From a virus (Duplodnaviria; Heunggongvirae; Uroviricota; Caudoviricetes), in IMG/VR virus record IMGVR_UViG_3300037391_000121: a stretch of DNA of 64,000 nucleotides; one strand, given 5' to 3'. Shown one piece after another: positions 23,202 through 56,658 of this stretch (position 1 is the first letter of the stretch; each line of letters begins with the position of its first letter). A program made the translations under genes and the position numbers. The notes under the pieces were generated by a model that searched no databases, had not been told where the DNA came from, and saw only the letters and a list, made by a program, of their open reading frames with translations.

Positions 23202-23256
23202 TGCCCGTCAGGTTGCCGTTGGCGAAGGTCGTGGCATTGCGGAATCCGTTCTCCGA

Positions 23257-24383: not shown

Positions 24384-24392
24384 GGTTCTGAC

Positions 24393-24581
24393 ATGGAACA
24401 GGAAGACAGTTTGAATTTCGATCAACCGCATCTGACGCTGTTCGTAGGTGACGGCGTAACGGTGATCGTCGGCAACAAAACGTATCGCGGCACGCTGGTG
24501 CAAGACGGCGACCGCTGGTATGTCAAGTTGGCTGGTCGCGAGCCGGGTGAGATCGACGAAGTTGTGATCGCGAAGCTTTAG
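24393..24581 (+). CDS. hypothetical protein, 62 aa
   Basis: ORF. Confidence 0.4.
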   Translation: MEQEDSLNFDQPHLTLFVGDGVTVIVGNKTYRGTLVQDGDRWYVKLAGREPGEIDEVVIAKL

Positions 24582-24589
24582 GAGGAAAC

Positions 24590-24808
24590 GTGCTACCGCC
24601 TTGTGGATGCCCGCCGCCAGCCCCAGAGACGTTCTGGACGCTGTTTCATGACGCCGCCCACTGGAAGTTTGAGTTGTTCGTCGGCGGCATTGAGGAACTC
24701 GTGACGGGTGTCCTTATCGGCATGTTTGTGTGGCCGCGTATCCAGAGACACTGGAAGCACCATCTCGAAAGAGACAAAAAAGAGGGACGGAATGGCGACC
24801 ACGCTTGA
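24590..24808 (+). CDS. hypothetical membrane-associated protein, 72 aa
   Basis: GTG start after AGGAGGAAAC. Confidence 0.4.
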   Translation: MLPPCGCPPPAPETFWTLFHDAAHWKFELFVGGIEELVTGVLIGMFVWPRIQRHWKHHLERDKKEGRNGDHA

Positions 24809-24968
24809 AATGATTATCGCCGACATGGAAGCTGACTTGGAGTACGGCGAAAGCTTCCCCAACAGCATGAGCAGTCGTGGCGAGGAAGCCATGGAAGACG
24901 GGAAAGTCCAGCTTTTGAGAAAGTATCTGCCCAAGTTGCGGGCGTTAAGGGATCAGAATGGCGAATAA
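24792..24968 (+). CDS. hypothetical acidic protein
   Basis: Internal Met (MATTLEM) overlapping the upstream stop. Confidence 0.35.
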   Translation: MATTLEMIIADMEADLEYGESFPNSMSSRGEEAMEDGKVQLLRKYLPKLRALRDQNGE

Positions 24969-26067: not shown

Positions 26068-26187
26068 TGAGACGACCAGTGCCGGGGTATGTCGAACGGG
26101 CTTGCTTTCGGATGAGGGACAACAGAGACCTTATCCAATGGCTGACCGAGGCGTACCCCGACACGATGCGTTGGATTTCGTACACGA

Positions 26188-26412
26188 TTGACACGACCTT
26201 GGAGAACATGCGGAGCAGGGAAATTCAGAAGGCGCAGGAGGCCGACCGTGGACAAGCAACTCGTAGCTGATCTCAGGAAAGAGTATACGGAATTGGTCGA
26301 AGTGCTCGAAGGCGATGGCTTCTGCATTCGTCGCGAGTGCATGTGCGATCATGCGAAGCCCGTGGTGAAGATGAACGATCTCATCACGAAGTTGGAGCAG
26401 GAGGCAAACTGA
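26188..26412 (+). CDS. hypothetical protein
   Basis: ORF; the true start may be the internal GTG. Confidence 0.3.
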   Translation: MTRPWRTCGAGKFRRRRRPTVDKQLVADLRKEYTELVEVLEGDGFCIRRECMCDHAKPVVKMNDLITKLEQEAN

Positions 26413-26804
26413 TGGGGTACATGATCCTCAAGCTGAATGATGGTAAGCGAGATTTCTACCTCGAATGGTCAACGCACACTGATGCCCCGCGAACCTTCGG
26501 CATGACGCTAAATGAATTCACCGCGTTCTACCGTGACGAGTATGGTCGCAGTAGCATGTTGGAGTTTCAGGAGCGGATGGAACGGGTCGAAGCGAAAGGG
26601 ACCTCCGACTACTGCGAGGAGTCCGTGGATGAAACCATCGCCCGCAATCACGCAGGCAAGGATGGCACCTGCCTGACGAAGGAACAGATCATCAAGGTTT
26701 ACTGCCACGAACGTCAGAAGCCCGTAACGGAAGAGGGTGTTGATCCGTGGGCTGAGGAAAAGGCCGCAGAAGCGGCAATGGAAGCACGCAGAGGAGTAAT
26801 CTGA
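26412..26804 (+). CDS. hypothetical protein
   Basis: Internal Met (MGYMILKL) of ORF 26337, right after the upstream stop. Confidence 0.4.
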   Translation: MGYMILKLNDGKRDFYLEWSTHTDAPRTFGMTLNEFTAFYRDEYGRSSMLEFQERMERVEAKGTSDYCEESVDETIARNHAGKDGTCLTKEQIIKVYCHERQKPVTEEGVDPWAEEKAAEAAMEARRGVI

Positions 26805-27109
26805 TGTTGTGTTGGGGCGGTAATTCCAAGGAAACGTCGATCACTGTCGCGATGCAGCCGAACCTGTTTCAGCGAGGCGACAAGATTCGGGTGAGCGGAT
26901 TTGTGAACAGTAACAACGGTTTGTTCGTAGTCAGGCGTGCGAAGGGCACGAGCTACATCGTACAGCCTGCCGACTGGTGGGATTACGTGACGCACTACGC
27001 CTCGAAGTTCTGGAACGAAGTGCAGTGGAAGTTCTGGGGCGTGGTCAACAATTTGGAGGATTTGTGGAACCGACTGTTGGAGAGCCTAAAGCGCGTAAGA
27101 AGCAGATGA
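26804..27109 (+). CDS. hypothetical protein, 101 aa
   Basis: ORF with overlapping start. Confidence 0.4.
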   Translation: MLCWGGNSKETSITVAMQPNLFQRGDKIRVSGFVNSNNGLFVVRRAKGTSYIVQPADWWDYVTHYASKFWNEVQWKFWGVVNNLEDLWNRLLESLKRVRSR

Positions 27110-27255
27110 CACGGCACGATTGGTACATCGTGCTCACCCTGCTCATGTTTGCGAACGCGGCATTGTTCGACGGTAAACGCGGCTGGGGCATGGGCCTGAC
27201 GCTCGTCGCGATCTTGATTGTGGTTCTGGTGGACGGTTTCGGTGTTAAATTATGA
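27106..27255 (+). CDS. small membrane protein
   Basis: MTRHDWYIVLTLLMF...; internal Met of ORF 26977. Confidence 0.35.
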   Translation: MTRHDWYIVLTLLMFANAALFDGKRGWGMGLTLVAILIVVLVDGFGVKL

Positions 27256-28391
27256 CGGTTTTCCTCAAGGACGTTTTGCCTGTCGATTTGCTGAACAAGC
27301 ATATCGAGGACGGCGTAATCCGTAAGCAGGTCCACCCCGACTATCCCGACCAGCTTTACATCTTGAACTATTCCGAGCAGGCTCAGTTCGGTCGCATCTG
27401 GGATGCGGCAACCAACGTGTGCCGTGGATTGGTCTGCGCCATTACGCCTGACGGCGACGTTGTGATTGCACGCGGATTCAACAAGTTCCACAATTACAAC
27501 ACGGAGTACCTGCCCGAGACGATGGACGCAAACTTGCCGCCCGTCACACCGCTGGCGACCCAGAAGTTGGATGGGTCGATGGGGCTCCCGTACTATTGGG
27601 ACGGCAAGTGGTGGGTTGCAACTCGCGGCTCGTTCGCTTCGGATCAGGCAAAATGGGCGACCGAGTGGCTCCGTCACAACTATCCGCTCTTCCACTCGGG
27701 TTCGTTCTCCACGCCCGTGTGCGAGGTAATCTACAAGGAGAACCGCATCGTCGTTGATTACGACTTTGAGGGACTCGTGTTGCTTGGCTTCGTGGACTTG
27801 GCGACTGGTTACGAACTCGGTCGGCTGTTCTGCGAGGATTGGGCATTCGCAAAGCAGTTCCCTATCGTCAAGAAGTTCGATAAGACGTTGGCGGAATGTG
27901 CTGCCGAGAACAACTTGAACGAAGAGGGCTACGTCTTGACTTACGACAAGGGGCGTGATGTAGCGCCCTTGAAGATCAAGGTGAAGTTCGCGGACTATGT
28001 GCGCTTGCACCGCATCTTGACTGGCTTGAATCCCAAGGCGATCTGGGAGATGTTGGAGGCCGGACAGAACGAGGCAATCGACACCATCATCGCCGACCCG
28101 ACGATGCCTGCGCCGTTCATCGCGTGGTTTTCGGGATGGGTGGAGCAGTTCCGTGCTCGGCATCGGGAGATGGAGCGGAAGGCACTGTACGTGTTCGACC
28201 GCCGCCCGAAGAACGATCTCGGCGATTTGGGTCCTGCCCTGCACCGCAAGTCGGTCGCTTTGTACTTCCAGAAGACGCCCGAGTTGTGCTCGATCCTGTT
28301 CGCGTTGCTGGACGGCAAGAACCATGCGTCCATCATTTGGGATCGCCTCAAGCCCAAGGCGACGGACACTTTCAAGAAGGACGGGGAGTGA
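27252..28391 (+). CDS. RNA ligase (T4 Rnl1-like, ATP-dependent)
   Basis: Nucleotidyltransferase motif I QKLDGSMG (KxDG lysine) at about residue 104. ATGA overlap upstream. Confidence 0.65.
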   Translation: MTVFLKDVLPVDLLNKHIEDGVIRKQVHPDYPDQLYILNYSEQAQFGRIWDAATNVCRGLVCAITPDGDVVIARGFNKFHNYNTEYLPETMDANLPPVTPLATQKLDGSMGLPYYWDGKWWVATRGSFASDQAKWATEWLRHNYPLFHSGSFSTPVCEVIYKENRIVVDYDFEGLVLLGFVDLATGYELGRLFCEDWAFAKQFPIVKKFDKTLAECAAENNLNEEGYVLTYDKGRDVAPLKIKVKFADYVRLHRILTGLNPKAIWEMLEAGQNEAIDTIIADPTMPAPFIAWFSGWVEQFRARHREMERKALYVFDRRPKNDLGDLGPALHRKSVALYFQKTPELCSILFALLDGKNHASIIWDRLKPKATDTFKKDGE

Positions 28392-28845
28392 GTGCTTCAC
28401 CCTGCTCAGCACGCTTTATCCAGTTGTGATTTGCACAGAGCAGTTGGTAGTTCTTACCCCCGTCCGCTAGAACTTTTTTCAAGTAGGTTTCTTGTGCCAG
28501 ACCTCTTAACTCTTTACAACCGCCTCCGAATTTATGGTCAATCTGGAGAGCCCTCGGGTCTGTCCATCCGCAACCCGGCCAAGCACATTGATTCCCCAGC
28601 ATTGCGAACACGGCTTCCTTACGCCGCGCTCGTGTCTGTCTGCTGTAGCCGTTATATCGTTCTCGATTGTTTTTCTTGGTTGCGGCTGTTACGGCAATGC
28701 ATTTTTCACGGTGGTTTTTGTAATGCTCGGCGCTTTTCTGCCGCTGTATTTGTAAACAGGTTTCACAGCAGGTTTTTCCGCCTGCTGTTGGATTCGGGCA
28801 ACGTGCACATTTCATGAAATAACCCCCTCTATAATAGGGGTTCAT
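28372..28845 (-). mobile_element. free-standing HNH homing endonuclease, opposite strand, inserted between the RNA ligase and CCA genes
   Basis: CAWPGCGW..LQIDH..LLCANHNW HNH motif plus N-terminal Cys cluster. The only minus-strand gene in the plus block. Overlaps the ligase 3' end by 20 nt. Confidence 0.65.
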
Positions 28846-28886
28846 AGCATAAAGATTTGTAAGTAGTTACAAAATAAGGGGTTATT

Positions 28887-28924
28887 CCTAAAGTTTTCGG
28901 GCGTTTCCTTGGTATAATAGGGGT
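28887..28924 (+). promoter_or_regulatory. conserved promoter element, copy 3
   Basis: CCTAAAGTTTTCGGGCGTTTCCTTGGTATAATAGGGGT then ATG at 28927. Confidence 0.55.
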
Positions 28925-28926
28925 AT

Positions 28927-29184
28927 ATGAGACGAAGCTTTCTGGATTCGATGCTGTCATTCGTGGGTCGGTGTACCCACGACCGTTATTCATTTCCCCA
29001 GACGATCAAGGCAGGCAAGGACAAGGGCAAGACCACGGTCTCCTGCTTGGACTGCGGCAAGACGCTGCCGTATGATTGGGCGGGGTTGGGCGCGGAGGAA
29101 GAAATCAAACCCCCCAAGATGACGGCACCGAGGGTTATCGTGATCGAGAAGACGGGAACGTATCTCATAGGAGAACAAAAGTGA
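28927..29184 (+). CDS. small zinc-finger protein, 85 aa
   Basis: CTHDRY..CLDCGKTLPYDW. Confidence 0.45.
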   Translation: MRRSFLDSMLSFVGRCTHDRYSFPQTIKAGKDKGKTTVSCLDCGKTLPYDWAGLGAEEEIKPPKMTAPRVIVIEKTGTYLIGEQK

Positions 29185-30500
29185 ACAGATTCGCCGCAAC
29201 CACAGTCATCCGAGAATTGCAGAGGAACGGCTTTGAAGCTTTCCTCGTAGGCGGCTGCGTGCGCGACATGATCCTCGGCAATGAGCCGAAGGATTTCGAC
29301 GTGACCACGAATGCTCTCCCTGAACAGGTGCAGGCGATCTTCGCCAAGACCTTGCCAGTCGGCGTCAGCTTCGGTGTGGTTATCGTTGTGGTGGATGTTG
29401 ACGGCAAGGGCGAGCAGATCGAAGTCGCTACCTACCGCAAGGACGGCGTGTACTCCGATGGTCGGCGTCCCGACACGGTTGAGTACGGCAAGACTGCACG
29501 GGAAGACGTGGAACGTCGCGACTTCACCATGAACGGCCTGCTCCTGACGACGCCGATGGATTTCCCCGTCAAAGGTGTCACCGCCGCAGACCACGACATG
29601 TTCGACGGCTACGGCATTGTTGACTTTGTTGGTGGACGGGAAGACATCAAGGCTCGGCTTATCCGCTGCATCGGTGACCCCAACAAGCGGTTCACGGAAG
29701 ATGCCCTGCGGATGATGAGGGCCGTGCGCTTCGCCGCGAAACTCGGCTTCGACATCGAGCCCGAGACGTTGAAGGCGATCACCGTCAATGCACCGAAGAT
29801 GGTGAACATCAGCCGCGAGCGAGTGGCGATGGAACTGTTCAAGTTGCTGACGGCTCCATTCCCTCTTAAGGGGCTCGTGCCCCTGTTCGCCTCGGGGTTG
29901 GCGGCACACGTGTTCCCGAAGGAATTTATGGACAACGTGCTGCTTGGCCGCACGCTGCGGCGATTCACGGAATTTCCTACGTCGAATCCAACATTGGCGA
30001 TGGCAATGTTTCTCAGCGATACGTCGAATCCTAAGACGCCGATGACGATGGCCTTGAGTTTGAAGCTGAGCAACGACGAGAAAACACAGATCGTGACGGC
30101 GCTGCTGTATGTCAGTGCGATCCCGAAGGCGCGGGAGTACGCCAGCACGCCCGCTCATTTTATTCGGACGATGCGAGTTCCGGGAATCGAATTGGGTCTG
30201 GAGATTGCCATCCAGAACGAAATGCTCGGCATAACCAACGTCGGCAATGAGGCTCTGATGTCGATTGTTAACGACTACCGGGGTCTGACGCCTGAGGAAA
30301 TTTACCCGAAGCCGTTGGTGACGGGGGACGATTTGATCGCCGCTGGCTACACGCCGAGCAAGGTGTTCCGCGACGTTCTGTACGTCATCGAAACGGAACA
30401 GTTGGACGGCAAGCTGACCACTCACGAGCAGGCCCTACAGCGTGCGATTGTGCTCATGACTGGCATCTGTACCGAACGTGTTGCTGAGGGCGGTGCGTGA
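29181..30500 (+). CDS. cca: tRNA nucleotidyltransferase (CCA-adding enzyme / poly(A) polymerase family)
   Basis: Head-domain motif FLVGGCVRDMILGNEPKDFDVTT (GGxVRD...DxD). GTG start after AGGAGAA with a GTGA overlap; in frame with ORF 29076. Confidence 0.7.
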   Translation: MNRFAATTVIRELQRNGFEAFLVGGCVRDMILGNEPKDFDVTTNALPEQVQAIFAKTLPVGVSFGVVIVVVDVDGKGEQIEVATYRKDGVYSDGRRPDTVEYGKTAREDVERRDFTMNGLLLTTPMDFPVKGVTAADHDMFDGYGIVDFVGGREDIKARLIRCIGDPNKRFTEDALRMMRAVRFAAKLGFDIEPETLKAITVNAPKMVNISRERVAMELFKLLTAPFPLKGLVPLFASGLAAHVFPKEFMDNVLLGRTLRRFTEFPTSNPTLAMAMFLSDTSNPKTPMTMALSLKLSNDEKTQIVTALLYVSAIPKAREYASTPAHFIRTMRVPGIELGLEIAIQNEMLGITNVGNEALMSIVNDYRGLTPEEIYPKPLVTGDDLIAAGYTPSKVFRDVLYVIETEQLDGKLTTHEQALQRAIVLMTGICTERVAEGGA

Positions 30501-34927: not shown

Positions 34928-35229
34928 ACATCACCGACATCAGCCTCGTCGTTCCTTGCCATTACTACTCGCAGGGCGGCTACCATTGCGTTGAGGGACA
35001 TCTCTTCAAGTATATCCACCCAGACCACAGCATGGACTTAGAGGGTGAAAAGGCGGGCGTGATTGCCGAGGTTGTCAGGGAAGAGGGCATTCCTATCCAA
35101 TGTCCCGCCTGCGAAGGCAAGGGCGTCCTTCTGACAAGGCTTGGTCGCCAGACAATTCAGTTTTTACAAACCTACGCCTACCCGATGCTTCGGGAAATGG
35201 TGCAGGATATCATGGAGGAGAAACTGTAG
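34921..35229 (+). CDS. hypothetical protein
   Basis: Internal Met (MLDITD) overlapping the upstream stop. Confidence 0.4.
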   Translation: MLDITDISLVVPCHYYSQGGYHCVEGHLFKYIHPDHSMDLEGEKAGVIAEVVREEGIPIQCPACEGKGVLLTRLGRQTIQFLQTYAYPMLREMVQDIMEEKL

Positions 35230-35510
35230 TGAGTTACGAATTGGATGAGTTTGAAGATTACCCAGAAGACGATTTTGAAGACGTAGAAGAAGCCGAAGTC
35301 GTAGACGATCTGGATGACGAGTTGCCCTCGGTTGACGTGTACGACGACGACGAGGCGTACTATTACGACCCCTACGAGGGGTACGAGGAAGACGAAAAGC
35401 TCGAAGAGGCTGAGGCCGATACCGTCTGCACGAAATGCGATGGCACAGGGGAGTTCCCTGAGGATCATTTGTGCAAAGCCTGCAACGGGAAAGGCTCCAT
35501 CGGTGAGTAA
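35229..35510 (+). CDS. highly acidic protein with C-terminal CxxCxGxG zinc finger
   Basis: GTG start after GGAGGAG; D/E/Y-rich; ..CTKCDGTGEFPEDHLCKACNGKG. Confidence 0.4.
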   Translation: MSYELDEFEDYPEDDFEDVEEAEVVDDLDDELPSVDVYDDDEAYYYDPYEGYEEDEKLEEAEADTVCTKCDGTGEFPEDHLCKACNGKGSIGE

Positions 35511-35763
35511 AGAGATCACCATCACGCCTGACGGCAAAGCCAAGGTGAGCACGATCATGAGCCTCGGCGATGGTCAGGCGTTCTTTCGCTCAATGCTCGG
35601 GACATGTGGCACAATCTGCGGCAAGGCTGGGCACGAGGACAACGAGAAGCCCCACGTCCGCAACGACTCGTGTTGGAACTGGAAGCCCGGAGACTACGTT
35701 TATCTGGGCGAAGTACGCGATACCAAGATCACCTTCAAGCCCGAGACCGAAGACCTGCTGTAA
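35503..35763 (+). CDS. hypothetical protein
   Basis: GTG start overlapping the upstream stop; in frame with ORF 35314. Confidence 0.35.
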   Translation: MSKEITITPDGKAKVSTIMSLGDGQAFFRSMLGTCGTICGKAGHEDNEKPHVRNDSCWNWKPGDYVYLGEVRDTKITFKPETEDLL

Positions 35764-35835
35764 CCCTTTGAAAACAAGCCAAATATAGTCCACATTTCCT
35801 ATCGATTCCCGCTTCTTTTTGGGTATAATAGGCAC
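35764..35835 (+). promoter_or_regulatory. conserved promoter element, copy 4 (long form)
   Basis: TTTGAAAACAAGCCAAATATAG...CCTATCGATTCCCGCTTCTTTTTGGGTATAATAGGCAC then ATG at 35836. Confidence 0.6.
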
Positions 35836-36165
35836 ATGAGCGATCAGACGGTAGCCAAAACAATCCTCGAACAGCTTGGCGGACGCAAGTTTATCGTCAT
35901 GACTGGCGCGAAGAATTTCGTCGGCTCCAGCAACAGCCTGTCCTTCAAGCTGCCCGGTGGCGGCGGCTTCTGCAATGACGGCATCAATTACGTCAACATC
36001 GAACTGACATCTGCCGACGACTATACCGTGACCTTCCACCGCGTGCGTGGTATGCGGAACACACTCGTCGCGAAGCACGAGGGCATTTACTTCGATCAAC
36101 TGCGAGAGTCTTTCACCAACGCAACTGGCTTGGCGACTTCACTCGGCACGATGGGGGCGAAATGA
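35836..36165 (+). CDS. hypothetical protein, 109 aa
   Basis: First gene after promoter copy 4. Confidence 0.5.
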   Translation: MSDQTVAKTILEQLGGRKFIVMTGAKNFVGSSNSLSFKLPGGGGFCNDGINYVNIELTSADDYTVTFHRVRGMRNTLVAKHEGIYFDQLRESFTNATGLATSLGTMGAK

Positions 36166-36611
36166 CAACCAATCACCTGCCTGAATCGCAGTATCTCGCT
36201 GGCGAGCGTGAAGCAGAACTCGCTGCCCTTCGTGCGGACGAGTCTTTCACGTTCAGCGTCGAGTCCGAACTGGCTGTCGTAGGTCACGACGGCGAGTACG
36301 CCGACATGGACAACCCCCGAGGGGAGATCATCCGTCACCGCTATTTCATGGTCGCTACCGATTCCATCGGTCACCAGTATCGCTACGGCTTCGAGCGCAC
36401 CGAGGCTCTCGCCGAGGCCGTCTTCCAACAGTTCGCCCCGCCCGTCTCTGAGTGGTCTCTATGGCGTTGCATTTACGGCTCCATCGCGTATGAACTGGAA
36501 GGCTGCGAAACCGCCCAACTGATCGATGAAATGGAATCCGACCTTGGTCATCGCTGGATGGAGCGGGCTCCCGAAGTCGCTCTCGCTCTCGCCGCTAAGG
36601 GGGCGATCTAA
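36162..36611 (+). CDS. hypothetical protein, 149 aa
   Basis: ATGA overlap. Confidence 0.45.
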   Translation: MTTNHLPESQYLAGEREAELAALRADESFTFSVESELAVVGHDGEYADMDNPRGEIIRHRYFMVATDSIGHQYRYGFERTEALAEAVFQQFAPPVSEWSLWRCIYGSIAYELEGCETAQLIDEMESDLGHRWMERAPEVALALAAKGAI

Positions 36612-36865
36612 TGAGCAAGCACGACGACGCCGAAACAGTGATAGCCATCATGGTCGCCGAAGTAAAACGGCGGACGACGATGGACGAGAAACGAGCCAAG
36701 GCACTGATCGAAGAAATGTGGAGCGAGGCTTACACGTTCGGGGCGCAGGGCAGCCAGAAGGTCTGGCACTATTTCGTGTACGAGACCGAGCGCAGCCCGT
36801 CCTCGGACTGGTGGTACAAACGAATTGAGAACGCCGTACTGCGGCGGACAGGATGGGCAAACTAA
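36611..36865 (+). CDS. hypothetical protein, 84 aa
   Basis: Overlapping start. Confidence 0.4.
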   Translation: MSKHDDAETVIAIMVAEVKRRTTMDEKRAKALIEEMWSEAYTFGAQGSQKVWHYFVYETERSPSSDWWYKRIENAVLRRTGWAN

Positions 36866-37230
36866 TGCAAGTCACGATCACGTTGGGGCAGCTTCGCACG
36901 CTGGAAGAGAACGGCAGCCTGCACATCAACGACGCCAAGATCGCCATTGAACTCGTGCTGCTCAAGCCTGAGAACGTCGCCACGGGCGCGGAGATCAAAG
37001 ACTTCTGGGACAACGGTTGGGACGGGAACTATTACCACGACGATTGGGAAGAAGCCGTTCAGGACGATGAAGGCAACTGGATTCTGGAAGACGGCAAACT
37101 GTATAATCTTGACAGGCTCGGCTATTGCTGCTGGCAGGGTCCGAGCAGCGGGGTGGGTGTGCGGCGTCACGATCAGCCCGCTACCATACCGTTCGTCGAA
37201 GCGTACCTCAAATGGAAGGGGAAACGATGA
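36853..37230 (+). CDS. hypothetical protein, 125 aa
   Basis: ORF. Confidence 0.4.
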   Translation: MGKLMQVTITLGQLRTLEENGSLHINDAKIAIELVLLKPENVATGAEIKDFWDNGWDGNYYHDDWEEAVQDDEGNWILEDGKLYNLDRLGYCCWQGPSSGVGVRRHDQPATIPFVEAYLKWKGKR

Positions 37231-37610
37231 TGACAGCGACAGGGGTAGCGAAAGTGCGTATTGAGATCGGCGGGTCTTACGTCTCCGACGAGTGCACGAT
37301 GGTTTATGAACTGACTCCAGAGCAGGCCGATGTTTACCAGACGGCTCAGTTCGCCTTCGAGAGAGCACGTACCGCACGCGACAAGGCTCTGGGCGCACCC
37401 ATCAGGTTCCCGAAGGGCGTCTGCAATTTCTGGCTCCTGAATGTCCGCCTGACGGCTGACGGCAATCAATTCATCAAGGCAGGCACCACAGGCGACATGA
37501 ACGTGATCGAGTGCAGCCATGACCGCCGCGTGTTGAAGGCTCTGTTCCATCCCACGGGCTCGCCGGGATTCGGCGAAGTGACTTGGCCTCAGTACGAGAA
37601 GATCGGATAA
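37227..37610 (+). CDS. hypothetical protein
   Basis: GGAAGGGGAAACG then ATGATG; internal Met of ORF 37125. Confidence 0.4.
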   Translation: MMTATGVAKVRIEIGGSYVSDECTMVYELTPEQADVYQTAQFAFERARTARDKALGAPIRFPKGVCNFWLLNVRLTADGNQFIKAGTTGDMNVIECSHDRRVLKALFHPTGSPGFGEVTWPQYEKIG

Positions 37611-37676
37611 CCTATGCATTGATGGCTCATAGCGGATGCGTTCGCCCCTGTCGAGGCACAGTACAGGGCAGAGATA

Positions 37677-37994
37677 TTGAAAGAGACGTGGGGACACCTT
37701 GCTCCGTCGCGGAACAAGAAGTACCACGGCTCCTTGACGTTCGCTCTGGGCATCTTCGGCTCCGACGATCTCAACCCGACCGCGATCTCCTGCGAGTTCA
37801 AAACCCGCAAGGGCGAGACGCTTGAGAGTTCACCGTGGTTTTACGACGCGATGATGGACTTCATGCAGTCGCTTGAGTGCGAAGCTGGCGGCGTGTACCG
37901 CTTCGAGGGCTATTTCCGAAATTACGAGTTTTGTGGTACGATCCGCAAGGTGAATTTGGAACCACAGTTGGTGGATCGGCAACGTTGGGTTTAA
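37677..37994 (+). CDS. hypothetical protein, 105 aa
   Basis: ORF. Confidence 0.4.
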   Translation: MKETWGHLAPSRNKKYHGSLTFALGIFGSDDLNPTAISCEFKTRKGETLESSPWFYDAMMDFMQSLECEAGGVYRFEGYFRNYEFCGTIRKVNLEPQLVDRQRWV

Positions 37995-38229
37995 CGTGGC
38001 ACCTGCCAGAGCAGCCACAGGTCCCTTGAGGAAAGCAGGATATGACTCGGGACGTGCGTTAACGGAGGGGTTATGAAAATCGACGGGCTTTTACTCACGT
38101 GTTTTCTCAAGGCGTGCGCTGAGAATTACAAAGTGCCTCTCGCCATAGAAATTGACGCAGCCAAGATGACGCTCATCAACACCGAGACTAAAGAGAAACT
38201 CTCGGAGACGGAATTTTAACGGAGGAATT

Positions 38230-38460
38230 ATGGACGATTTTATCGTGTTGCGTAGAGCGAGAGCCGAAAGCAGGGGACCGCGAGACGAAAAATTCGTCGA
38301 GACCGCAGGACAACTCGCGGAGTTGCTGCAAGTCTTGGCGCACAAGTCGCAGCTTCTTGACAACGTGCAACTGAGCGCGTATCAGGAACGCATGGACGTT
38401 TTGATTGGGCAAATGAAGGAAACGATGCAGGTCGAGGGCATCGCATACATAGGAGTGTAA
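38230..38460 (+). CDS. hypothetical protein, 76 aa
   Basis: GGAGGAATT then ATG. Confidence 0.4.
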   Translation: MDDFIVLRRARAESRGPRDEKFVETAGQLAELLQVLAHKSQLLDNVQLSAYQERMDVLIGQMKETMQVEGIAYIGV

Positions 38461-38463
38461 GCC

Positions 38464-38868
38464 ATGTTTGGATTTGGGAAGGGCAAGAGCAAGCCAGTGA
38501 AGCCCGAGGAGCCGAAGGAAGATAAGCCGCTGCGTTTCTACGCCTACTACAACGCAGTCTGCATCATGGGCAAGGCTCCATGGCCTCCGATGATTAAAGA
38601 CCACTCAGGGCACGACCGCTTCGATCTGTTCCAGCATATCGCGGACGCCCTGAACGTGAAGCACCGCTACGGTTTTGTGCGTAAGCAACTCGCGTTGACG
38701 GTCGCGGCGTATGAACGCGGCGACATCGACAAACAGAAAGTGGCGGACGACTTGATCCACATGCTGCAAGTCATCCGTGCCGACGAGAAGCGCGACGAGC
38801 CTCTGTTCGCCGAGCACGAACGCAAGCTGGCGGAATACGAGCGCAGCAACGGGAATTGGGGAGGATAA
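38464..38868 (+). CDS. hypothetical protein, 134 aa
   Basis: ORF. Confidence 0.45.
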   Translation: MFGFGKGKSKPVKPEEPKEDKPLRFYAYYNAVCIMGKAPWPPMIKDHSGHDRFDLFQHIADALNVKHRYGFVRKQLALTVAAYERGDIDKQKVADDLIHMLQVIRADEKRDEPLFAEHERKLAEYERSNGNWGG

Positions 38869-38870
38869 TT

Positions 38871-39242
38871 ATGCCAATAGCCGATGGAGTTCTGACAATC
38901 ACACCCGAGGAGATCGTCATCACCGATCACCTTTGGGATGCGTTCGGTCACTATGAGACCGAAATTTCTGCCGACTGGCTTGTCCGCTTTGCTCAGAAGC
39001 GTGGTAAGGGTTGGAGGCCGTTCACCTACGCTGAGATCGAAGAGTTCTACTCGGCTGGCAGGGGCGGTACACTTCGCGGCTTCTCTTTCAATAAGCTGGT
39101 TGACAAGGGTTTCATCATCATCATGGTTCCGAAGGGCACCGTTGGCACCGAAGGCTCGCCACGGCTTTTCGTTCCCGAAGACACCTATCACTACACCGAG
39201 GATTTCATCGGTCGATGCTTCCGAGCGGCGGCGAAGAAATGA
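38871..39242 (+). CDS. hypothetical protein
   Basis: GGGGAGGATAATT then ATG. Confidence 0.45.
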   Translation: MPIADGVLTITPEEIVITDHLWDAFGHYETEISADWLVRFAQKRGKGWRPFTYAEIEEFYSAGRGGTLRGFSFNKLVDKGFIIIMVPKGTVGTEGSPRLFVPEDTYHYTEDFIGRCFRAAAKK

Positions 39243-39439
39243 GTTTTGATGACCGCACTATGCGGCTGGATGATAGCCCACGGGATCGGGTGCGACAAGT
39301 TCATCCCAAGTGCGTGTGCACCGCCGTCTACTGGAATGGACGCCGGGAGGGTTTTGTTGTCTCCCTGAACGGGAAGACTATTGCGTCGGCGACCCAAGCG
39401 TATCAGGCGTGGCTGCTGGCGGAAGCGAAGCTACTATGA
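39239..39439 (+). CDS. hypothetical protein
   Basis: ATGA overlap; internal Met of ORF 39215. Confidence 0.35.
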   Translation: MSFDDRTMRLDDSPRDRVRQVHPKCVCTAVYWNGRREGFVVSLNGKTIASATQAYQAWLLAEAKLL

Positions 39440-39606
39440 CTCATTCCTGCGCCAAATCGATCTACTTCGACCGCTGCACGATGTGCGGACGGTGCCCAGA
39501 GTGTTGCCCGGGGCATAAACGACCCGACAATTACTACGGCATGACCCGCCAGCAAGGTCTTGACTGGAAGAAGCAGGAACGCCAGAAACCCGCGAGGATA
39601 AACTAG
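39436..39606 (+). CDS. small Cys-rich protein, 56 aa
   Basis: CTMCGRCPECCPGH; ATGA overlap. Confidence 0.35.
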   Translation: MTHSCAKSIYFDRCTMCGRCPECCPGHKRPDNYYGMTRQQGLDWKKQERQKPARIN

Positions 39607-40631
39607 TGCCCTACATTCAATACGTCAACAAAAAGATCGGTGCAGACAAGATGGCGATCATCGATGTCTGCAATGAGATCATCGCGTCCTATCAGGCTCA
39701 GGGCTTTCGTTTGACGTTGCGGCAGCTTTACTACCGACTCGTGGCGGGCGACCTGTTTCCCGACGACCGTAAGTGGGTCTGGACGGGCAGCAAGTGGATT
39801 CGTCACCCCGATGGCACCAAGAACGCGGAGCCGAATTACAAATTCCTCGGCGACGTGGTTTCTGACGGTCGGCTGTTGGGGTTGGTGGATTGGGACGCTA
39901 TTGAAGACCGCACCCGTAGCCTCAGCACCAACTCGCATTGGGCCGAGCCAGTCAACATCGTGGAAAGTGCTCGCGATTCATACCTCAATGATCTGTGGCG
40001 TTGGCAGCCAGTTCGTCCCGAGGTCTGGGTGGAGAAGGACGCTTTGGAAGGGGTCGTACAAGCCGCTTGCAAGCCGCTTGACGTGCCTTTCTTCTCCTGC
40101 CGTGGCTACACCAGCCAATCCGCCATGTGGGAGGCAGGGCAGCGTTTGCTCGGCTACCGCCAGAACACCGTGGAATACAAAGGCAAGCACGTTCGCCGCG
40201 AGAACAAACCGTTTCGTCAACGTGTGCTGATCTTCCATCTTGGCGATCACGATCCTTCGGGCATCGACATGACGCGAGATATTCAGGATCGGCTGGAAAT
40301 GTTCACTGGCATTCCAGTTGAGGTTCGCCGTCTCGCTTTGAACATGGATCAGGTTCAGAAGTACAGTCCGCCGCCGAACCCCGCCAAGCAAACGGATTCG
40401 CGATTCAAGCAGTACATGGAGGAGCACGGCGACGAGAGTTGGGAGCTTGATGCTCTGGAGCCGAATGTGTTAATCTCCCTCATACAGGCGAACATCAAGT
40501 CTGTGATGGATGCCCCTCGGTACGAGGAAGCCCGCCTGATTCAGGAGCACGGGCGGAAAGAACTGACCAGTATCGCCGAGAAGTATGCCGTGGCAGTCAA
40601 GGCGACGGCTGGAAAACCGGAGAAGAAATAA
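39606..40631 (+). CDS. Spo11/TopoVI-A-like protein (CAP/winged-helix with candidate catalytic Tyr, plus Toprim)
   Basis: GTG start after GAGGA. LTLRQLYYRLV matches the TxRxxYY CAP motif; VWVEKDALEG matches the Toprim glutamate; IFHLGDHDPSGIDM matches the DxD Toprim metal site. Confidence 0.55.
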   Translation: MPYIQYVNKKIGADKMAIIDVCNEIIASYQAQGFRLTLRQLYYRLVAGDLFPDDRKWVWTGSKWIRHPDGTKNAEPNYKFLGDVVSDGRLLGLVDWDAIEDRTRSLSTNSHWAEPVNIVESARDSYLNDLWRWQPVRPEVWVEKDALEGVVQAACKPLDVPFFSCRGYTSQSAMWEAGQRLLGYRQNTVEYKGKHVRRENKPFRQRVLIFHLGDHDPSGIDMTRDIQDRLEMFTGIPVEVRRLALNMDQVQKYSPPPNPAKQTDSRFKQYMEEHGDESWELDALEPNVLISLIQANIKSVMDAPRYEEARLIQEHGRKELTSIAEKYAVAVKATAGKPEKK

Positions 40632-40819
40632 TGCCAAAGAAGAGACCTGCTATCGAATATCCCAAGGATGTCATCGTAGAGGCCAAGCTTCGCCGTATGC
40701 GTCCTGACGACTACCTTCGCCAGATGGCGGAATGCGGCATGGCCGACCAGCGGATGGACGAGATCGACCGCAAGAAGCTGGACGAAATGCAGGAGCCGGT
40801 AGCCGAGTCCGCGTTGTGA
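40631..40819 (+). CDS. hypothetical protein, 62 aa
   Basis: ATGC-type overlap. Confidence 0.4.
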   Translation: MPKKRPAIEYPKDVIVEAKLRRMRPDDYLRQMAECGMADQRMDEIDRKKLDEMQEPVAESAL

Positions 40820-40998
40820 GCAGCTACGGGTTCCAGCCAAGCGGCAATCCAACGAGCGGCAAATACCTTCTTCGGCTGTTTGGCACCATTGCCAGCATCC
40901 TTTGGCTAGTGGGCGGAATTTTTGACGGGCATTGGAGCCCCGGCCCGTTGGTTCTCGCCGCTATCCTGTTCGGGATCGCTTGGGTGTGCAAATCCTAA
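40816..40998 (+). CDS. small membrane protein
   Basis: GTGA overlap; LFGTIASILWLVGGIF..LAAILFGIAWVC. Confidence 0.35.
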   Translation: MSSYGFQPSGNPTSGKYLLRLFGTIASILWLVGGIFDGHWSPGPLVLAAILFGIAWVCKS

Positions 40999-41002
40999 TA
41001 AG

Positions 41003-41072
41003 TTGTTGAAAACAAACCAAATATAGCCCCAAAATCCTATCGATTTCGCTCATTTTTTGGGTATAATAGGGC
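41003..41072 (+). promoter_or_regulatory. conserved promoter element, copy 5 (long form)
   Basis: GTTGAAAACAAACCAAATATAG...CCTATCGATTTCGCTCATTTTTTGGGTATAATAGGGC then ATG at 41073. Confidence 0.6.
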
Positions 41073-41384
41073 ATGAGCAGATTACGATTGAACGTGAAAG
41101 CGATGGCAGCCCGCAGCGAAGCCCGCACCGCCGCCATTGTCGTTGGCAGCACCTACTTCCTGTCCAGCTTCTACGATAAGGACGGCTGTCTCGTGGAGGT
41201 TCTGAGCAAGTCCACGAAGAAGAACAGCGCGGGCTGGCCGAGCACCGTCGAAGTGAAGGTCATTTGTCCTCTGGGCGACGACGCTGGCAAACCGTACTAC
41301 GCGGTCGGCACCATCCACACCTGCAACGCGACCAACCTCTACGATAAGCGTGATGACGCCTCGCACACGCGGAGGGTGTTCTAA
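41073..41384 (+). CDS. hypothetical protein, 103 aa
   Basis: First gene after promoter copy 5. Confidence 0.5.
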   Translation: MSRLRLNVKAMAARSEARTAAIVVGSTYFLSSFYDKDGCLVEVLSKSTKKNSAGWPSTVEVKVICPLGDDAGKPYYAVGTIHTCNATNLYDKRDDASHTRRVF

Positions 41385-41563
41385 TGGATCAGCCAACGAT
41401 TATGACCGCCGATCACCGCCAGATGCTCGCCTACTGGCACGTCAACGAGCCAGACGCGGGCGTCGAGTGGCTGGCGAATAACATGATTCGCAAGTTCAAC
41501 CTGAACAAAAACACCGCATGGATTCTGGCTACACGGTTCATCAACGAACGGAGGGGCTAATGA
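41384..41563 (+). CDS. hypothetical protein, 59 aa
   Basis: ATGG-type overlap. Confidence 0.35.
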
Positions 41564-41709
41564 GCGCAGCTTGGGGTACAGCAGAATCGCTTGAATCGGT
41601 GCCACGATTGCAGCGTATTTGGCGCATGTGGTCCTACGTTTCTGTGGGTTCGATCTTCTACATGCTGGTACGTTTTTACAACTAACAAGCACATTAGAGA
41701 GGGGCAACT

Positions 41710-42045
41710 ATGGAATCCACCAATCGCCATCAGATTCGCGTAAACGGTTTGGTTATCAATCACATTGATGTGCGGCACGCGCTCGTAGACGGCGTACCGT
41801 GCGGTGAATGGCAGGTCGCCATCGAAGACCCCATGATCGGCTGGATGACCCTAGACGACAACGATAACCTGTGGGATAATGATCTACCGAAGTTCGTGTT
41901 GGAGGTTCGTGCCAACCCGTGGGTCTCTGTTATCGACATGCGGGACGGCAATGAATTACCAGTTCTCGGCTGGCGGCAGGTGTCGGTCGCCCAACTGCTT
42001 GAACTTTTAGAGTCTACAGGGGTCTTAGTTAGGGAGACCCGCTAG
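41710..42045 (+). CDS. hypothetical protein, 111 aa
   Basis: GAGAGGGGCAACT then ATG. Confidence 0.45.
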   Translation: MESTNRHQIRVNGLVINHIDVRHALVDGVPCGEWQVAIEDPMIGWMTLDDNDNLWDNDLPKFVLEVRANPWVSVIDMRDGNELPVLGWRQVSVAQLLELLESTGVLVRETR

Positions 42046-42051
42046 GGCATC

Positions 42052-42321
42052 ATGGGATTTTTCGACGACTACAACGAAGAGGAAGTTCGCCCACGCCGTA
42101 AGTCTCGACGGGGGAGCGCCGACGACAGTGCCGACGACAGGCTCGATTGGCGAGACCTTGGCGAAGGGATCGACGAACCCGAAGAGCCTACCGAGGAACC
42201 CGACGAGGAGTCCGAAGAGGACGAGGACACGATCCAAGAACTTGAGATCGATGACCACGGCAGGATGCGTCGTTCGAGCAGGGACGAGATTGACCCCGAC
42301 TTTTGGAACGAAGACGAATAA
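42052..42321 (+). CDS. acidic low-complexity protein, 89 aa
   Basis: D/E/S-rich. Confidence 0.4.
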   Translation: MGFFDDYNEEEVRPRRKSRRGSADDSADDRLDWRDLGEGIDEPEEPTEEPDEESEEDEDTIQELEIDDHGRMRRSSRDEIDPDFWNEDE

Positions 42322-42329
42322 TCCAAACT

Positions 42330-42659
42330 ATGAGGCAAGCGATTAGAGTAGCGTTACTCTGCGTTGTGATTGGGTTTGCACTCGGATACCTCGGTCTGTC
42401 TGTTCACGGCATCATGGCGGAAAAGGCTCAGGCGTCGAAACCTTCCGCACTATTTAAGAACCCCGACATTTACATAGGGGGCAGGCCGTCGCCCTTCACA
42501 TTTGGTGGCCCTCCATTAGGTAACGATCCCCCGTTTTTTGATCCATTCACTCAAAGCCCATCGCGAGCAATGCCCCGCCCACTGCCGCCGCCTCCGCAGG
42601 ACGCTCCCTGTATCGGCACTGCCGATCCCTGCCAGCAACGAAGGGTCATCAGGATATGA
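42330..42659 (+). CDS. membrane-anchored Pro-rich protein
   Basis: N-terminal TM helix then Pro-rich tail. Confidence 0.4.
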   Translation: MRQAIRVALLCVVIGFALGYLGLSVHGIMAEKAQASKPSALFKNPDIYIGGRPSPFTFGGPPLGNDPPFFDPFTQSPSRAMPRPLPPPPQDAPCIGTADPCQQRRVIRI

Positions 42660-42946
42660 CCGTGACCCCACTTGAGGAATCCCGCGAAGTCTACGCTGCG
42701 ATCCCCGCTTCACTCAGGGAGCCCGCCTTAGCCCTCCTGACCGCATTGCTGGAGCCTGTGTCGCCTGAGATACGTGCTGACTACACCAAAGACCCCATCA
42801 ACTGGTGGAAGCATGGACACTTCCATTTCGGCCTCGCCGTCCGCAATCAACTTCGTCGCAAGGGATTTGACGCCGCCTACTTCGGCGTCAGCAACTTGGA
42901 CGACATCTACGTTTTTCTCGTCGAAGAAGCCCTCAAACTCCGCTAA
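42656..42946 (+). CDS. hypothetical protein, 96 aa
   Basis: ATGA overlap. Confidence 0.4.
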   Translation: MTVTPLEESREVYAAIPASLREPALALLTALLEPVSPEIRADYTKDPINWWKHGHFHFGLAVRNQLRRKGFDAAYFGVSNLDDIYVFLVEEALKLR

Positions 42947-42950
42947 ATGT

Positions 42951-42960
42951 GGTATTATAT
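42951..42960 (+). promoter_or_regulatory. weaker promoter-family copy (TGGTATTATAT)
   Basis: Extended -10 about 20 nt before GGAGGCAGAT then the ATG at 42984. Confidence 0.35.
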
Positions 42961-42983
42961 CTGTTAGGCAGTTGGAGGCAGAT

Positions 42984-43436
42984 ATGAAAACTCAACTCGA
43001 ACTGGACATCGAACAGCGCGAATTGGATGCACAGAAAGCCGCCGCCGCAAAGGAAAAGCGGGACGCAGAGGCAGCGGAGAAAAGCCGCCTCTGGTCTCGC
43101 AATGAATTCCGTAAGACTACCACGCCTCTCGTGGAGTGGGCTGGTGCGGAGTACACTGGCGATGAATCCCTGAAATTCACTTTCAAGGGAGAGGTCTTTT
43201 CGCTGTCCGTTGACACGTATTGGAGTGAAGGGGACAACGAAAGCGGCATCCCCAGCGGCTACTCCTCAGCTTGGTATCTCCACGGCAGGTGCAAAGAGGT
43301 TTATGTGGCCGGATGTTCGAGCTATTTTGAGCCTGACAGCAACGGCAAGTATTCGGGCTACGCTCATGGCCCGATCAAAGAAAAGATCATCAAAGCGATC
43401 AAAGAGATCGACGACGACGAATGTCGGAGGCGGTAA
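42984..43436 (+). CDS. hypothetical protein
   Basis: GGAGG SD; internal Met of ORF 42774. Confidence 0.45.
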   Translation: MKTQLELDIEQRELDAQKAAAAKEKRDAEAAEKSRLWSRNEFRKTTTPLVEWAGAEYTGDESLKFTFKGEVFSLSVDTYWSEGDNESGIPSGYSSAWYLHGRCKEVYVAGCSSYFEPDSNGKYSGYAHGPIKEKIIKAIKEIDDDECRRR

Positions 43437-43960
43437 TGAAAGCGGCTCAAGCACGATCCAAAGCAGTATCCATCGCACAAAAAGAAGCCGCCGAGAAATC
43501 GGCTGCACTCCAGAAGCGTCGTGCGGCTCTCAAAGAGTCCGTCCCGCGTCTTCGCGCTGAACGCATCAAGCAGATTGAGGCTAAGTTCCGCGAGCGCATC
43601 GAGTATGCCGTGGAAGATGGAAAGAAACAGACAGCGATCACCCTGTCCTCTGACGGCCACGACCGCCTGCGTGGGGAATACAAGTACCTTCCCATGAAAG
43701 TCTCCGGCAGGAATTATCGCACAGGAGAAGTTGAACGCAGCAATTACCATGCATGGGGTGAAGGCTATCTCAAGTACGCCGCATGGGGCAAGTACGTCAA
43801 GCTGGTGTTGACGAAGCTCCGTCGTGACGGGTACAAATGCGTGGTAACGGGTGAGAACACAATGCACGACGATTCCGCCGCCTACCTGAACAGTGGAGGC
43901 GAGTGCGGCTCCGAGGAGACGTACTACACACGTGACACAATTCTGACGATCAAGTGGTGA
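43436..43960 (+). CDS. hypothetical protein
   Basis: GGAGGCGGTA then ATG. Confidence 0.45.
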   Translation: MKAAQARSKAVSIAQKEAAEKSAALQKRRAALKESVPRLRAERIKQIEAKFRERIEYAVEDGKKQTAITLSSDGHDRLRGEYKYLPMKVSGRNYRTGEVERSNYHAWGEGYLKYAAWGKYVKLVLTKLRRDGYKCVVTGENTMHDDSAAYLNSGGECGSEETYYTRDTILTIKW

Positions 43961-43963
43961 AAC

Positions 43964-44386
43964 ATGAAAGCCAAAGAAGCTAAACTCGCTGCCCAGAAAA
44001 AGGCCGAAGAACTCAAGCAGAAACGCGAAGAGGCCGAGCGCAAGAAGAACGAAGACGCAGCCAAGAAGTGGCGCGAGGAACGAGCCAACTGGTACACGAA
44101 TCACATATCGTGGATCGAAGAGTCCATCGCAGAAGCGGTTAACAAGGGGAAGGATAAGACCAACGTCTGGCTATCGTCCTCCGAGAAACCTGAGAACGCG
44201 ACGGAGCAAGCCTTCTGGGGAAGATTCGCTTTCAAGCCAGAGTTGAAGAAGGTCATTGCTCATTTCGAGGATTTGGGCTACCAAATTAAGTTCCGCGTCA
44301 AGACAGAGGAACACGTTGATCTTTCCGACCTGAGCCCTCGCGACAACTGGTTTACCTACGAGACCCTCTTGGATATAAGCTGGTGA
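43964..44386 (+). CDS. hypothetical protein with KE-rich N-terminal coil
   Basis: ORF. Confidence 0.4.
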   Translation: MKAKEAKLAAQKKAEELKQKREEAERKKNEDAAKKWREERANWYTNHISWIEESIAEAVNKGKDKTNVWLSSSEKPENATEQAFWGRFAFKPELKKVIAHFEDLGYQIKFRVKTEEHVDLSDLSPRDNWFTYETLLDISW

Positions 44387-44772
44387 AGACCCTCCTCGAA
44401 GAGCAAGTCGGTATCTACCTGTCCGAGAAACGGCATCTGCTCAGCGTGAAGATCAACCCCGTCCGCGTTGACTGCGTATCATGTTTGGAATCCTGCTATC
44501 GTTCCGAGTTCAAAACCAATTTGGATTTCTCCGCAGCGGCCAAAGCCTTCAATGACAAGCACGGCTATCTAGAACGCAAAATTGCCGAAAATATTGACGA
44601 AATTGTGGGCGTGTACCTCACTGCAAAGGGCCTCTTTTATACGCTAGAGACTCCGTTCGTTTTCGAGCCGCCCGTTATTGACGTTTCCTACCCGTTCGAC
44701 GTATCTGGCGAGTGGATCGGCGATTCTTTTCACCCCACAGGCTGCACCTGCCCCACCCACGTGAAAAACTAA
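44383..44772 (+). CDS. hypothetical protein, 129 aa
   Basis: GTGA-type overlap. Confidence 0.4.
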   Translation: MKTLLEEQVGIYLSEKRHLLSVKINPVRVDCVSCLESCYRSEFKTNLDFSAAAKAFNDKHGYLERKIAENIDEIVGVYLTAKGLFYTLETPFVFEPPVIDVSYPFDVSGEWIGDSFHPTGCTCPTHVKN

Positions 44773-44790
44773 TTTTCCGTTTTCTTAGGC

Positions 44791-45102
44791 ATGTACGAAC
44801 TTTTTGTTTTCCCGACTGAGGTCGAACATCAGGGTACTAAACAGTTGGTTCACTGCGACTTTCCGCTGGCTGAACTTTCGGACATGCCTGACCCCGCCGA
44901 CCTTGATATTTTCATGGGGTTTCGCCTCGACATCGAACGGGGACTGTTCATCCGCTGGGCTTTAGACACCACCTTGGGCGGCAATCGAGTGGTTCACTAC
45001 TGCTACAACCTGTCCATTGCCCTGACTGAAATTCCCATGCCTCGTAGGTTGGTTCGGGAGCTTCAGAAGCAGCCCGATTTGCTGGATTCCCTGTCCCGCT
45101 AA
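44791..45102 (+). CDS. hypothetical protein, 103 aa
   Basis: ORF; followed by hairpin GGGGTT-TTCG-AACCCC. Confidence 0.4.
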   Translation: MYELFVFPTEVEHQGTKQLVHCDFPLAELSDMPDPADLDIFMGFRLDIERGLFIRWALDTTLGGNRVVHYCYNLSIALTEIPMPRRLVRELQKQPDLLDSLSR

Positions 45103-56623: not shown

Positions 56624-56658
56624 AACTGACTTTTTAGCCCATAGTAGAGGGCACGTTC

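Follow-up and report, generated by a model that had tools for sequence, protein, structure and literature searches.

A predicted stand-alone Topo Mini-A protein, divergent within its family, from an undescribed large-phage lineage

The Mini-A gene and its conserved motifs

The stretch of DNA analysed here (hereafter the window) comprises 64,000 nucleotides of caudoviricete sequence (IMG/VR record IMGVR_UViG_3300037391_000121) and carries a gene whose predicted product joins an N-terminal winged-helix domain to a Toprim domain (Table 1). The start codon follows a Shine-Dalgarno-like sequence and was also chosen when genes were called independently on an identical contig from a metagenome; promoter and terminator scans around the gene returned background-level signals only. 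The exact protein was found solely in metagenome assemblies, and a megablast search with the 35–45 kb part of the window gave no match among deposited phages. Phage families recognized in the window were a virion structural protein, HNH, Pnkp, RNA ligase, and helicase. The phage that carries the gene represents an undescribed large-phage lineage.

Table 1. Coordinates of the Mini-A gene and its features in the window
Feature	Position	Strand	Description
Mini-A gene	39606..40631	+	341 aa, GTG start, stop codon counted in coordinates; from the ORF list
Shine-Dalgarno-like GAGGA	39594..39598	+	7 nt 5' of the GTG start; direct sequence reading
N-terminal winged-helix / 5Y-CAP-like domain	39642..39920	+	About residues 13–105
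LTLRQLYYRLV, residues 36–46	39711..39743	+	R39 (clasp/DNA-contact arginine), Y42, Y43
Y43, predicted catalytic tyrosine	codon 39732–39734	+	Within LTLRQLYYRLV
Toprim domain	40011..40505	+	About residues 136–300
VWVEKDALEG, residues 140–149	40023..40052	+	Toprim glutamate E143 (codon 40032–40034), end of first Toprim strand
IFHLGDHDPSGIDM, residues 209–222	40230..40271	+	Metal-binding D214-x-D216-P-x-G219
ALNMDQVQKYSPPPNPAK...TDSRF block, about residues 239–267	40320..40406	+	Fourth block co-linear with Top6A
"T2BI box" W279-E-L-D-A-L284	40440..40457	+	Mini-A-defining signature; E280 presumed equivalent to the clasp glutamate of Top6A

A sequence-only reading of the window had singled out this open reading frame as a Spo11/topoisomerase VI-A-like protein on the strength of three motifs, around a tyrosine pair, a Toprim glutamate, and a DxDPxG metal site. 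All three strings are present as described, and they are near-invariant in an alignment of 245 Mini-A homologues, in which we counted residue conservation. In the tyrosine motif, R39 and Y43 are each retained in 242/245 sequences; the Toprim glutamate E143 and the adjacent K144 are found in every homologue (245/245); and in the DxDPxG motif D214 is universal (245/245), with D216 and G219 each kept in 244/245. Because conservation across the 245 homologues is nearly complete, the three motifs are not chance matches. Purifying selection on the cleavage residues is very strong.

Conservation extends to two further elements. The WELDAL box is retained at each position in most homologues (W 240/245, E 245/245, L 243/245, D 245/245, A 239/245, and L 234/245), and R242, K261, and R266 of the fourth block are nearly invariant in the same alignment. 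Some homologues contain a canonical intein (Cys...His-Asn|Cys) inserted three residues before the Toprim glutamate; inteins usually sit in active-site motifs of DNA enzymes. The window protein also has two extra loops, a hairpin at residues ∼51–72 that occurs in slightly over half of the 245 homologues and a basic loop at residues ∼186–205 that occurs in <10% of them. Judged from this alignment, both loops are clade-specific.

Family membership and comparison with Top6A and Spo11

The window protein matches PHROG 6247, "DNA topoisomerase", with an E-value of 4e-91. No match was obtained even at E ≤ 10 with Pfam models (including TP6A_N and Toprim) or with NCBIfam, and sequence searches of the PDB with either the single protein or a 70-sequence family profile returned nothing relevant. 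By tblastn, homologues were detected in 77 deposited phage genomes, all at <60% identity, and the best 40 of these 77 records showed 38–47% identity across ≥ 89% of the window protein; among the matches listed, identity to deposited phage proteins did not exceed 47%. The annotations of these homologues vary (DNA topoisomerase, DNA topoisomerase VI, DNA binding protein, or hypothetical), and the phages that carry them include those of Pseudomonas, Salmonella, Listeria, and Xylella. In wider sequence collections, a word-indexed search recovered at least 8000 homologues at E ≤ 1e-5, and an exhaustive HMM search recovered 11,652 clusters (50% identity) at E ≤ 0.001, with 2,629 at E ≤ 1e-30.

These properties correspond to the "Mini-A" subfamily of type IIB topoisomerases defined by Takahashi et al. 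(2019, NAR Genom Bioinform, PMC7671362). According to that work, Mini-A proteins are distant Top6A homologues of about 300 aa that are stand-alone and virus-encoded, lack the N-terminal Top6B-binding part of the 5Y-CAP domain, retain R-x-x-Y/F-Y, the Toprim glutamate, and DxDxxG, and are set apart by a C-terminal xWELDAL box; a Bergerat-fold partner is absent nearby, and the authors left the existence of a "Mini-B" open. The window protein is likewise short and stand-alone, with its tyrosine at position 43 rather than 106 as in Methanosarcina mazei (M. mazei) Top6A, so placed that the N-terminal Top6B-binding part is missing. It contains R39-Q-L-Y42-Y43, a Toprim glutamate followed by DxDxxG, and S278-W-E-L-D-A-L284; it is encoded amid phage families, with homologues in the 77 phage records; and no GHKL (Bergerat-fold) B subunit was found in its neighbourhood, within the window ORFs scanned and the homologue neighbourhoods. 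Listeria, Pseudomonas, and Salmonella, which are among the host genera of the matching phages, are also named for Mini-A (PMC7671362).

On these sequence features, we assign the window gene to the Topo Mini-A family, and its product would be a divergent member. No defining feature differs between the two; Topo Mini-A is mostly annotated in 40–60 kb siphoviruses, whereas the window protein is encoded by a large phage that also carries a set of RNA-repair genes. The sequence-only reading was correct about the structure on all testable points. It had also called the protein the most novel-looking one in the window, which overstates its novelty: the architecture was published in 2019 as Mini-A (PMC7671362), corresponds to PHROG 6247, and is so annotated in many of the 77 phage genomes. 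What is new here is a divergent member from an undescribed large-phage lineage.

We compared the window protein with Top6A and Spo11 using Top6A/Spo11 sequences from the PDB together with 120 bona fide Top6A sequences carrying PF04406/PF21180; residue numbers of M. mazei Top6A follow the PDB fragment numbering and the 2026 Top6 cryo-EM paper (PMC13040014). In a profile alignment with hhalign, TLRQLYY falls on STLRELYY (R39 on R102 and Y43 on Y106), VWVEKDAL on IAIETGGM (E143 on E202), and LGDHDPSG on FTDGDPWS (D214/D216 on D254/D256), thereby placing the motifs of the earlier Spo11/Top6A-like reading on the M. mazei catalytic residues, with weak statistics. A fourth co-linear block aligns ALNMDQVQKYSPPPNPAK...TDSRF with GVQPSDIVDYNLPTDKL...TDPRF of Top6A, within the pattern FxGVxPSDIxxYxLPxDxL...TDPRF (segment P 0.0074). 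This co-linear alignment was obtained with broader profiles and relaxed settings, the defaults aligning the tyrosine motif alone. Because the P-value of the alignment was only 0.013 (score 26.6), we added a column-shuffled null, which gave 15.1 ± 2.8 with a maximum of 24.7, so that 0/149 shuffles reached the real score. The similarity between Mini-A and Top6A thus appears marginally detectable at the sequence level, with weak statistics, and fits the "distant homologues" of the literature.

Neither the full nor the C-terminal-only hhalign alignment placed WELDAL on the Top6A box KKAEQQAL, and the C-terminal-only alignment backed the ALNMDQV...PPPNPAK block. In Top6A, the E342 "clasp" restrains cleavage by pairing with R102 (PMC13040014). 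Given the published T2BI box (PMC7671362) and the common E-x-x-A-L pattern, E280 of WELDAL presumably corresponds to E342.

An AlphaFold2 model built from the 70-sequence alignment had a mean pLDDT of 90 and a pTM of 0.83, and the protein shows the two-domain fold of a winged helix (5Y-CAP) plus Toprim. Among PDB structures, Foldseek ranked the cleavage complex of M. mazei Top6A first (9o0g_A; E 0.025, TM 0.29), and none of the matches reached E ≤ 0.001. At a TM of 0.29, the overall layout of domains in the monomer model fails to match that of Top6A; the relative domain orientation in the model may be unlike that of Top6A, or uninformative. Top6A and Spo11 were the best structural matches for both domains, and Top6A, MksG, and Spo11 ranked above primases, with the N-terminal domain closest to the CAP domain of Top6A.

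This ranking bears on two other suggestions. Some SEA-PHAGES annotations ("DNA binding protein") would make the protein a DNA binder or structural component with no catalytic role, and a second alternative is a DnaG-like primase that uses the Toprim fold alone. We regard either as most improbable. A non-catalytic role is at odds with how little the tyrosine, the acidic triad, and WELDAL vary among homologues, and with the intein at the Toprim active-site motif of some homologues; a primase is opposed by the absence of a primase zinc-binding domain, by the higher scores of Top6A, MksG, and Spo11, by the Top6A-like N-terminal domain, and by the separate primase that some Mini-A phages encode.

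Overall, the window protein shares with Top6A and Spo11 a winged helix bearing the catalytic tyrosine, a Toprim domain, and co-linear R/Y, E, and DxD residues, and with Top6A a C-terminal box of the E-x-x-A-L type. It differs in several respects: true Top6A proteins carry PF04406/PF20768/PF21180, whereas the window protein matches neither TP6A_N (PF04406) nor Top6A-Toprim (PF21180); the box is WELDAL rather than KKAEQQAL; and the protein is ∼60 N-terminal residues shorter, and therefore lacks the Top6B-binding part of Top6A. Topo VIII, a plasmid-borne type IIB topoisomerase whose GHKL ATPase and transducer are either joined to the A part or separate from it, resembles Mini-A in its restriction to mobile elements, its truncated 5Y-CAP, and its Toprim catalytic residues, and has the box RVELNAM (PMC7671362). 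In contrast, the window protein consists of CAP and Toprim only, with no GHKL or transducer, and has WELDAL instead of RVELNAM.

Partner search and genomic context

Top6A and Spo11 work with a GHKL-type B subunit (Top6B or Top6BL). We found none among the window ORFs scanned or in homologue neighbourhoods, bearing out the sequence-only reading, which had seen no GHKL ATPase gene in the window. Specifically, none of 41 window ORFs (62–824 aa) matched GHKL/HATPase or topoisomerase-B families in PHROGs and/or Pfam; these 41 include nearly all candidates of ≥ 180 aa and ten small neighbours of the Mini-A gene. In seven annotated phages, no GHKL/ATPase-like gene was annotated or matched by Pfam within 4–5 kb of Mini-A, and none was found up to 10 kb around Mini-A in three related contig lineages.

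A partner could still be imagined if Mini-A belonged, as A subunit, to a genuine ATP-dependent type IIB topoisomerase whose B-like subunit has diverged beyond recognition, lies elsewhere in the phage genome, or is supplied by the host. The protein keeps the full set of catalytic and regulatory Top6A residues, many window ORFs have no recognizable family, and "Mini-B" was left open in PMC7671362. The phage genome also extends beyond the window and may be larger than 130 kb, given related contigs of up to 137.7 kb, so from the window data alone a partner elsewhere is possible. Against this stand the 0/41 ORFs with a GHKL domain, the lack of such a gene or of any conserved neighbour at the Mini-A loci of ten other genomes or contig lineages, the absence of the Top6B-binding N-terminal 5Y-CAP segment (Y43 versus Y106 in M. 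mazei), and the presence of Mini-A in 42–60 kb phages with no candidate partner annotated nearby. Taken together, we consider a hidden B partner decidedly unlikely.

In several phages, small ORFs overlap Mini-A at its start or stop. A conserved small partner overlapping the gene start or end was considered and rejected, as none of the upstream small ORFs compared (window, NP1, BP12C, LWP01, and a relative at 67% identity) is related to another; a conserved downstream partner was rejected likewise, the downstream small ORFs being equally unrelated.

In the window, the immediate neighbours of Mini-A are small ORFs without a PHROG match, and an SNF2-type helicase lies 5.7 kb downstream. Relatives with 66–67% identity occur on 65–138 kb contigs that have TROVE, peptide deformylase, Pnkp, RNA ligase, and SNF2 in common with the window, and Mini-A lies at differing positions between these contigs. 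In the seven annotated phages, Mini-A is located in early or replication/recombination/nucleotide-metabolism regions. Its neighbours are DNA ligase, Sak4, a Cas4-type exonuclease, helicase, primase, RNase H, and ThyX in NP1; ThyX in Chi-like BP12C; RNR, helicase, and HNH in Pam3; and Cas4 exonuclease, HIRAN, endonuclease V, and DNA polymerase in RcSimone-Hastad. In Listeria LWP01, it belongs to an early operon whose last gene encodes DNA polymerase, and two further annotated phages have MazG and lysis genes near Mini-A. No neighbour is common to the Mini-A loci across the seven annotated phages and the related contigs.

This setting, together with residue conservation, also informs the possibility that Mini-A is a hydrolytic, ATP-independent Toprim nuclease comparable to MksG or JetD, acting without a covalent tyrosine intermediate in host DNA degradation, attack on competing elements, or counter-defence. 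MksG and JetD, the nuclease subunit of MksBEFG/Wadjet, act in host defence, have SMC-like partners encoded alongside them, and lack the catalytic tyrosine of the CAP domain. The window protein, in contrast, is phage-encoded and keeps the tyrosine; R39 and Y43 are each present in 242/245 homologues, alongside a clasp-type WELDAL box, whereas MksG has no catalytic tyrosine in its 5Y-CAP-equivalent domain. PADLOC models, Wadjet and Gabija components included, gave 0 matches at E ≤ 10; no SMC-like gene of the JetABC/MksBEF type was found among the window ORFs scanned; and the genomic context is one of replication and nucleotide metabolism rather than host takeover. We hold the hydrolytic reading to be unlikely because the conservation of the tyrosine would be hard to explain if it were unused.

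Proposed activity and significance

By analogy with Top6A and Spo11, we propose that Mini-A is probably a stand-alone, homodimeric, Mg2+-dependent enzyme that cleaves and rejoins DNA through a tyrosine link and serves phage replication or recombination. In such a homodimer, Y43 of one subunit would attack a phosphodiester near Mg2+ held by E143/D214/D216 of the other, yielding a covalent 5'-phosphotyrosyl link that could be resealed, and the R39–E280 pair would probably resemble the R102–E342 clasp that restrains cleavage in Top6A. Because both the ATPase and the B-binding segment are missing, ATP-gated strand passage seems unlikely, and ATP-independent nicking, or breaking and rejoining, of DNA would be the most likely activity. 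Candidate roles are the initiation, by a nick or break, of rolling-circle or recombination-dependent replication, or the relaxing or unlinking of replication intermediates. The sequence-only reading had suggested DNA breakage, anti-defence, replication, or genome-end processing; these suggestions are speculative, as are those in the literature. The proposed role in replication or recombination, probable on the genomic setting, is circumstantial because the neighbours of Mini-A are not conserved. Along similar lines, the literature has raised Mini-A as a candidate initiator of rolling-circle replication in Asgard skuldviruses, while describing its function as unknown.

A more specific version would make Mini-A a phage "Spo11", a homodimer that introduces programmed, protein-linked double-strand breaks or nicks into phage DNA. 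Neighbouring exonuclease and annealing proteins would then process the ends, feeding recombination-dependent or rolling-circle replication or forming genome ends. We view this version as a rather improbable one. Features compatible with it are the retained tyrosine, metal site, and clasp-like box, the lack of an ATPase, and the proximity, in some phages, of ligase, Sak4, Cas4-exonuclease, and polymerase genes.

Our literature searches found no experimental study of Mini-A. The family has been known since 2019, and the window gene raises no question beyond that description; cultured phages carrying Mini-A are equally or more tractable. Its members are very widespread among phages and proviruses, forming about 11,650 clusters at 50% identity, and, as predicted from their sequences, keep the complete cleavage chemistry of Top6A/Spo11 without an ATPase. 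Their function would reveal how the cleavage core of a type IIB enzyme works in isolation, with bearing on phage replication and on the origin of topoisomerase VI and meiotic Spo11. If the phage "Spo11" version were true, this stand-alone viral protein would be a working model of the ancestral, ATPase-free Spo11/Top6A cleavage machinery.

Mini-A and its immediate surroundings

Two structural elements set the window's Mini-A, a stand-alone Top6A/Spo11-like protein, apart within its family: a beta-hairpin inserted in the winged-helix domain and a basic loop preceding the DxD strand, the latter having lower confidence in the predicted model (see table). Four family members (P0126, P0197, P0225, and P0255; 677-712 aa each) additionally carry an insertion of ∼350 aa that starts with Cys and ends in His-Asn followed by Cys (...VE/C....HN/CWVEKDAL, slashes marking its ends), which makes it a canonical intein. 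The insertion site lies three residues N-terminal of the Toprim glutamate, equivalent to 40023-40031 in the window, directly 5′ of the E143 codon; the window protein itself has no intein.

Mini-A is flanked by two small ORFs. The ATG of the Cys-rich upstream ORF overlaps the stop of the preceding gene (ATGA) and its own stop overlaps the Mini-A GTG (TAGTG), suggesting translational coupling. This ORF had no PHROG match when scanned within a longer ORF (39310-39606), and it is conserved 5′ of Mini-A neither in relatives nor in other phages. The downstream ORF was also without a match in the PHROG scan, and the ORFs at its position in two relatives (L012 and L014) are unrelated in sequence.

Features of the window, with coordinates and strand
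Feature	Position	Strand	Details
Block of large genes	354-10432	-	orientation opposite to remainder of window
RNA-repair/RNA-quality-control set (region 14701-30500)	14701-16671, 14875-14980, 19067-19139, 24958-26067, 27252-28391, 29076-30500	+	
tRNA-Phe-like element	14875-14948	+	
Possible YrlA (Y RNA-like) element	14917-14980	+	Rfam match below threshold (29.4 bits vs gathering score 69)
Peptide deformylase, phage-encoded	23546-24166	+	phrog_2890, E 2e-30
56-aa Cys-rich ORF	39436-39606	+	uncalled; MTHSCAKSIYFDRCTMCGRCPECCPGH...; CxxCxxCxxCC
Beta-hairpin insertion, Mini-A residues ∼51-72	39756-39821	+	in slightly more than half of 245 homologues
Basic loop, Mini-A residues ∼186-205	40161-40220	+	YRQNTVEYKGKHVRRENKPF; in <10% of 245 homologues
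62-aa ORF	40631-40819	+	first base is last base of Mini-A stop codon
Nucleotide-metabolism cluster	55282-57141, 61609-62685	+	

Source lineage and gene content

Megablast of window positions 35000-45000 against 50,697 deposited phage genomes returned zero matches, and identical or related sequence (L001 and L012-L015) was found only in metagenome assemblies (Logan, JGI, and ENA), on contigs reaching 137.7 kb. On this sequence evidence, the window is part of a large-phage lineage so far undescribed.

In the minus-strand block, an Ice-binding-like domain (PF11999, E 4e-35) occurs in a protein of 755 aa; the block also encodes a family-2 glycosyltransferase, shows a weak match to the virion-structural phrog_1645, and includes two proteins of 824 and 469 aa without a match. 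A 96-nt 'tRNA-Phe(aaa)' called by ARAGORN at 4450-4545 falls within the glycosyltransferase ORF on the opposite strand and is probably spurious. The peptide deformylase gene also has counterparts in related contigs.

Members of the nucleotide-metabolism cluster are dual-specificity phosphatase-like, HD-domain, nucleoside 2-deoxyribosyltransferase-like, and thymidylate-synthase-family (phrog_85) proteins. ThyX or DNA-modification genes were also observed near Mini-A in several other phages, namely NP1 (Queuovirinae), Pam3, where aGPT-Pplase2 occurs, and BP12C, which carries both ThyX and a deoxyribosyltransferase.

RNA-repair and RNA-quality-control genes

A plus-strand region of the window carries a set of RNA-repair and RNA-quality-control genes, including a TROVE/Ro60-like protein matched by phrog_850. 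Because this match begins at residue 160, the true start of the TROVE gene probably lies downstream of 14701, and the tRNA-Phe-like/YrlA-like element is situated just 5′ of that probable start. The set further comprises a tRNA-Ser, a polynucleotide kinase-phosphatase, a T4-type RNA ligase, and a CCA-adding enzyme, and it recurs in related contigs of 65-138 kb. Together, these genes may constitute a phage Ro/Y-RNA module plus tRNA-repair counter-defence.
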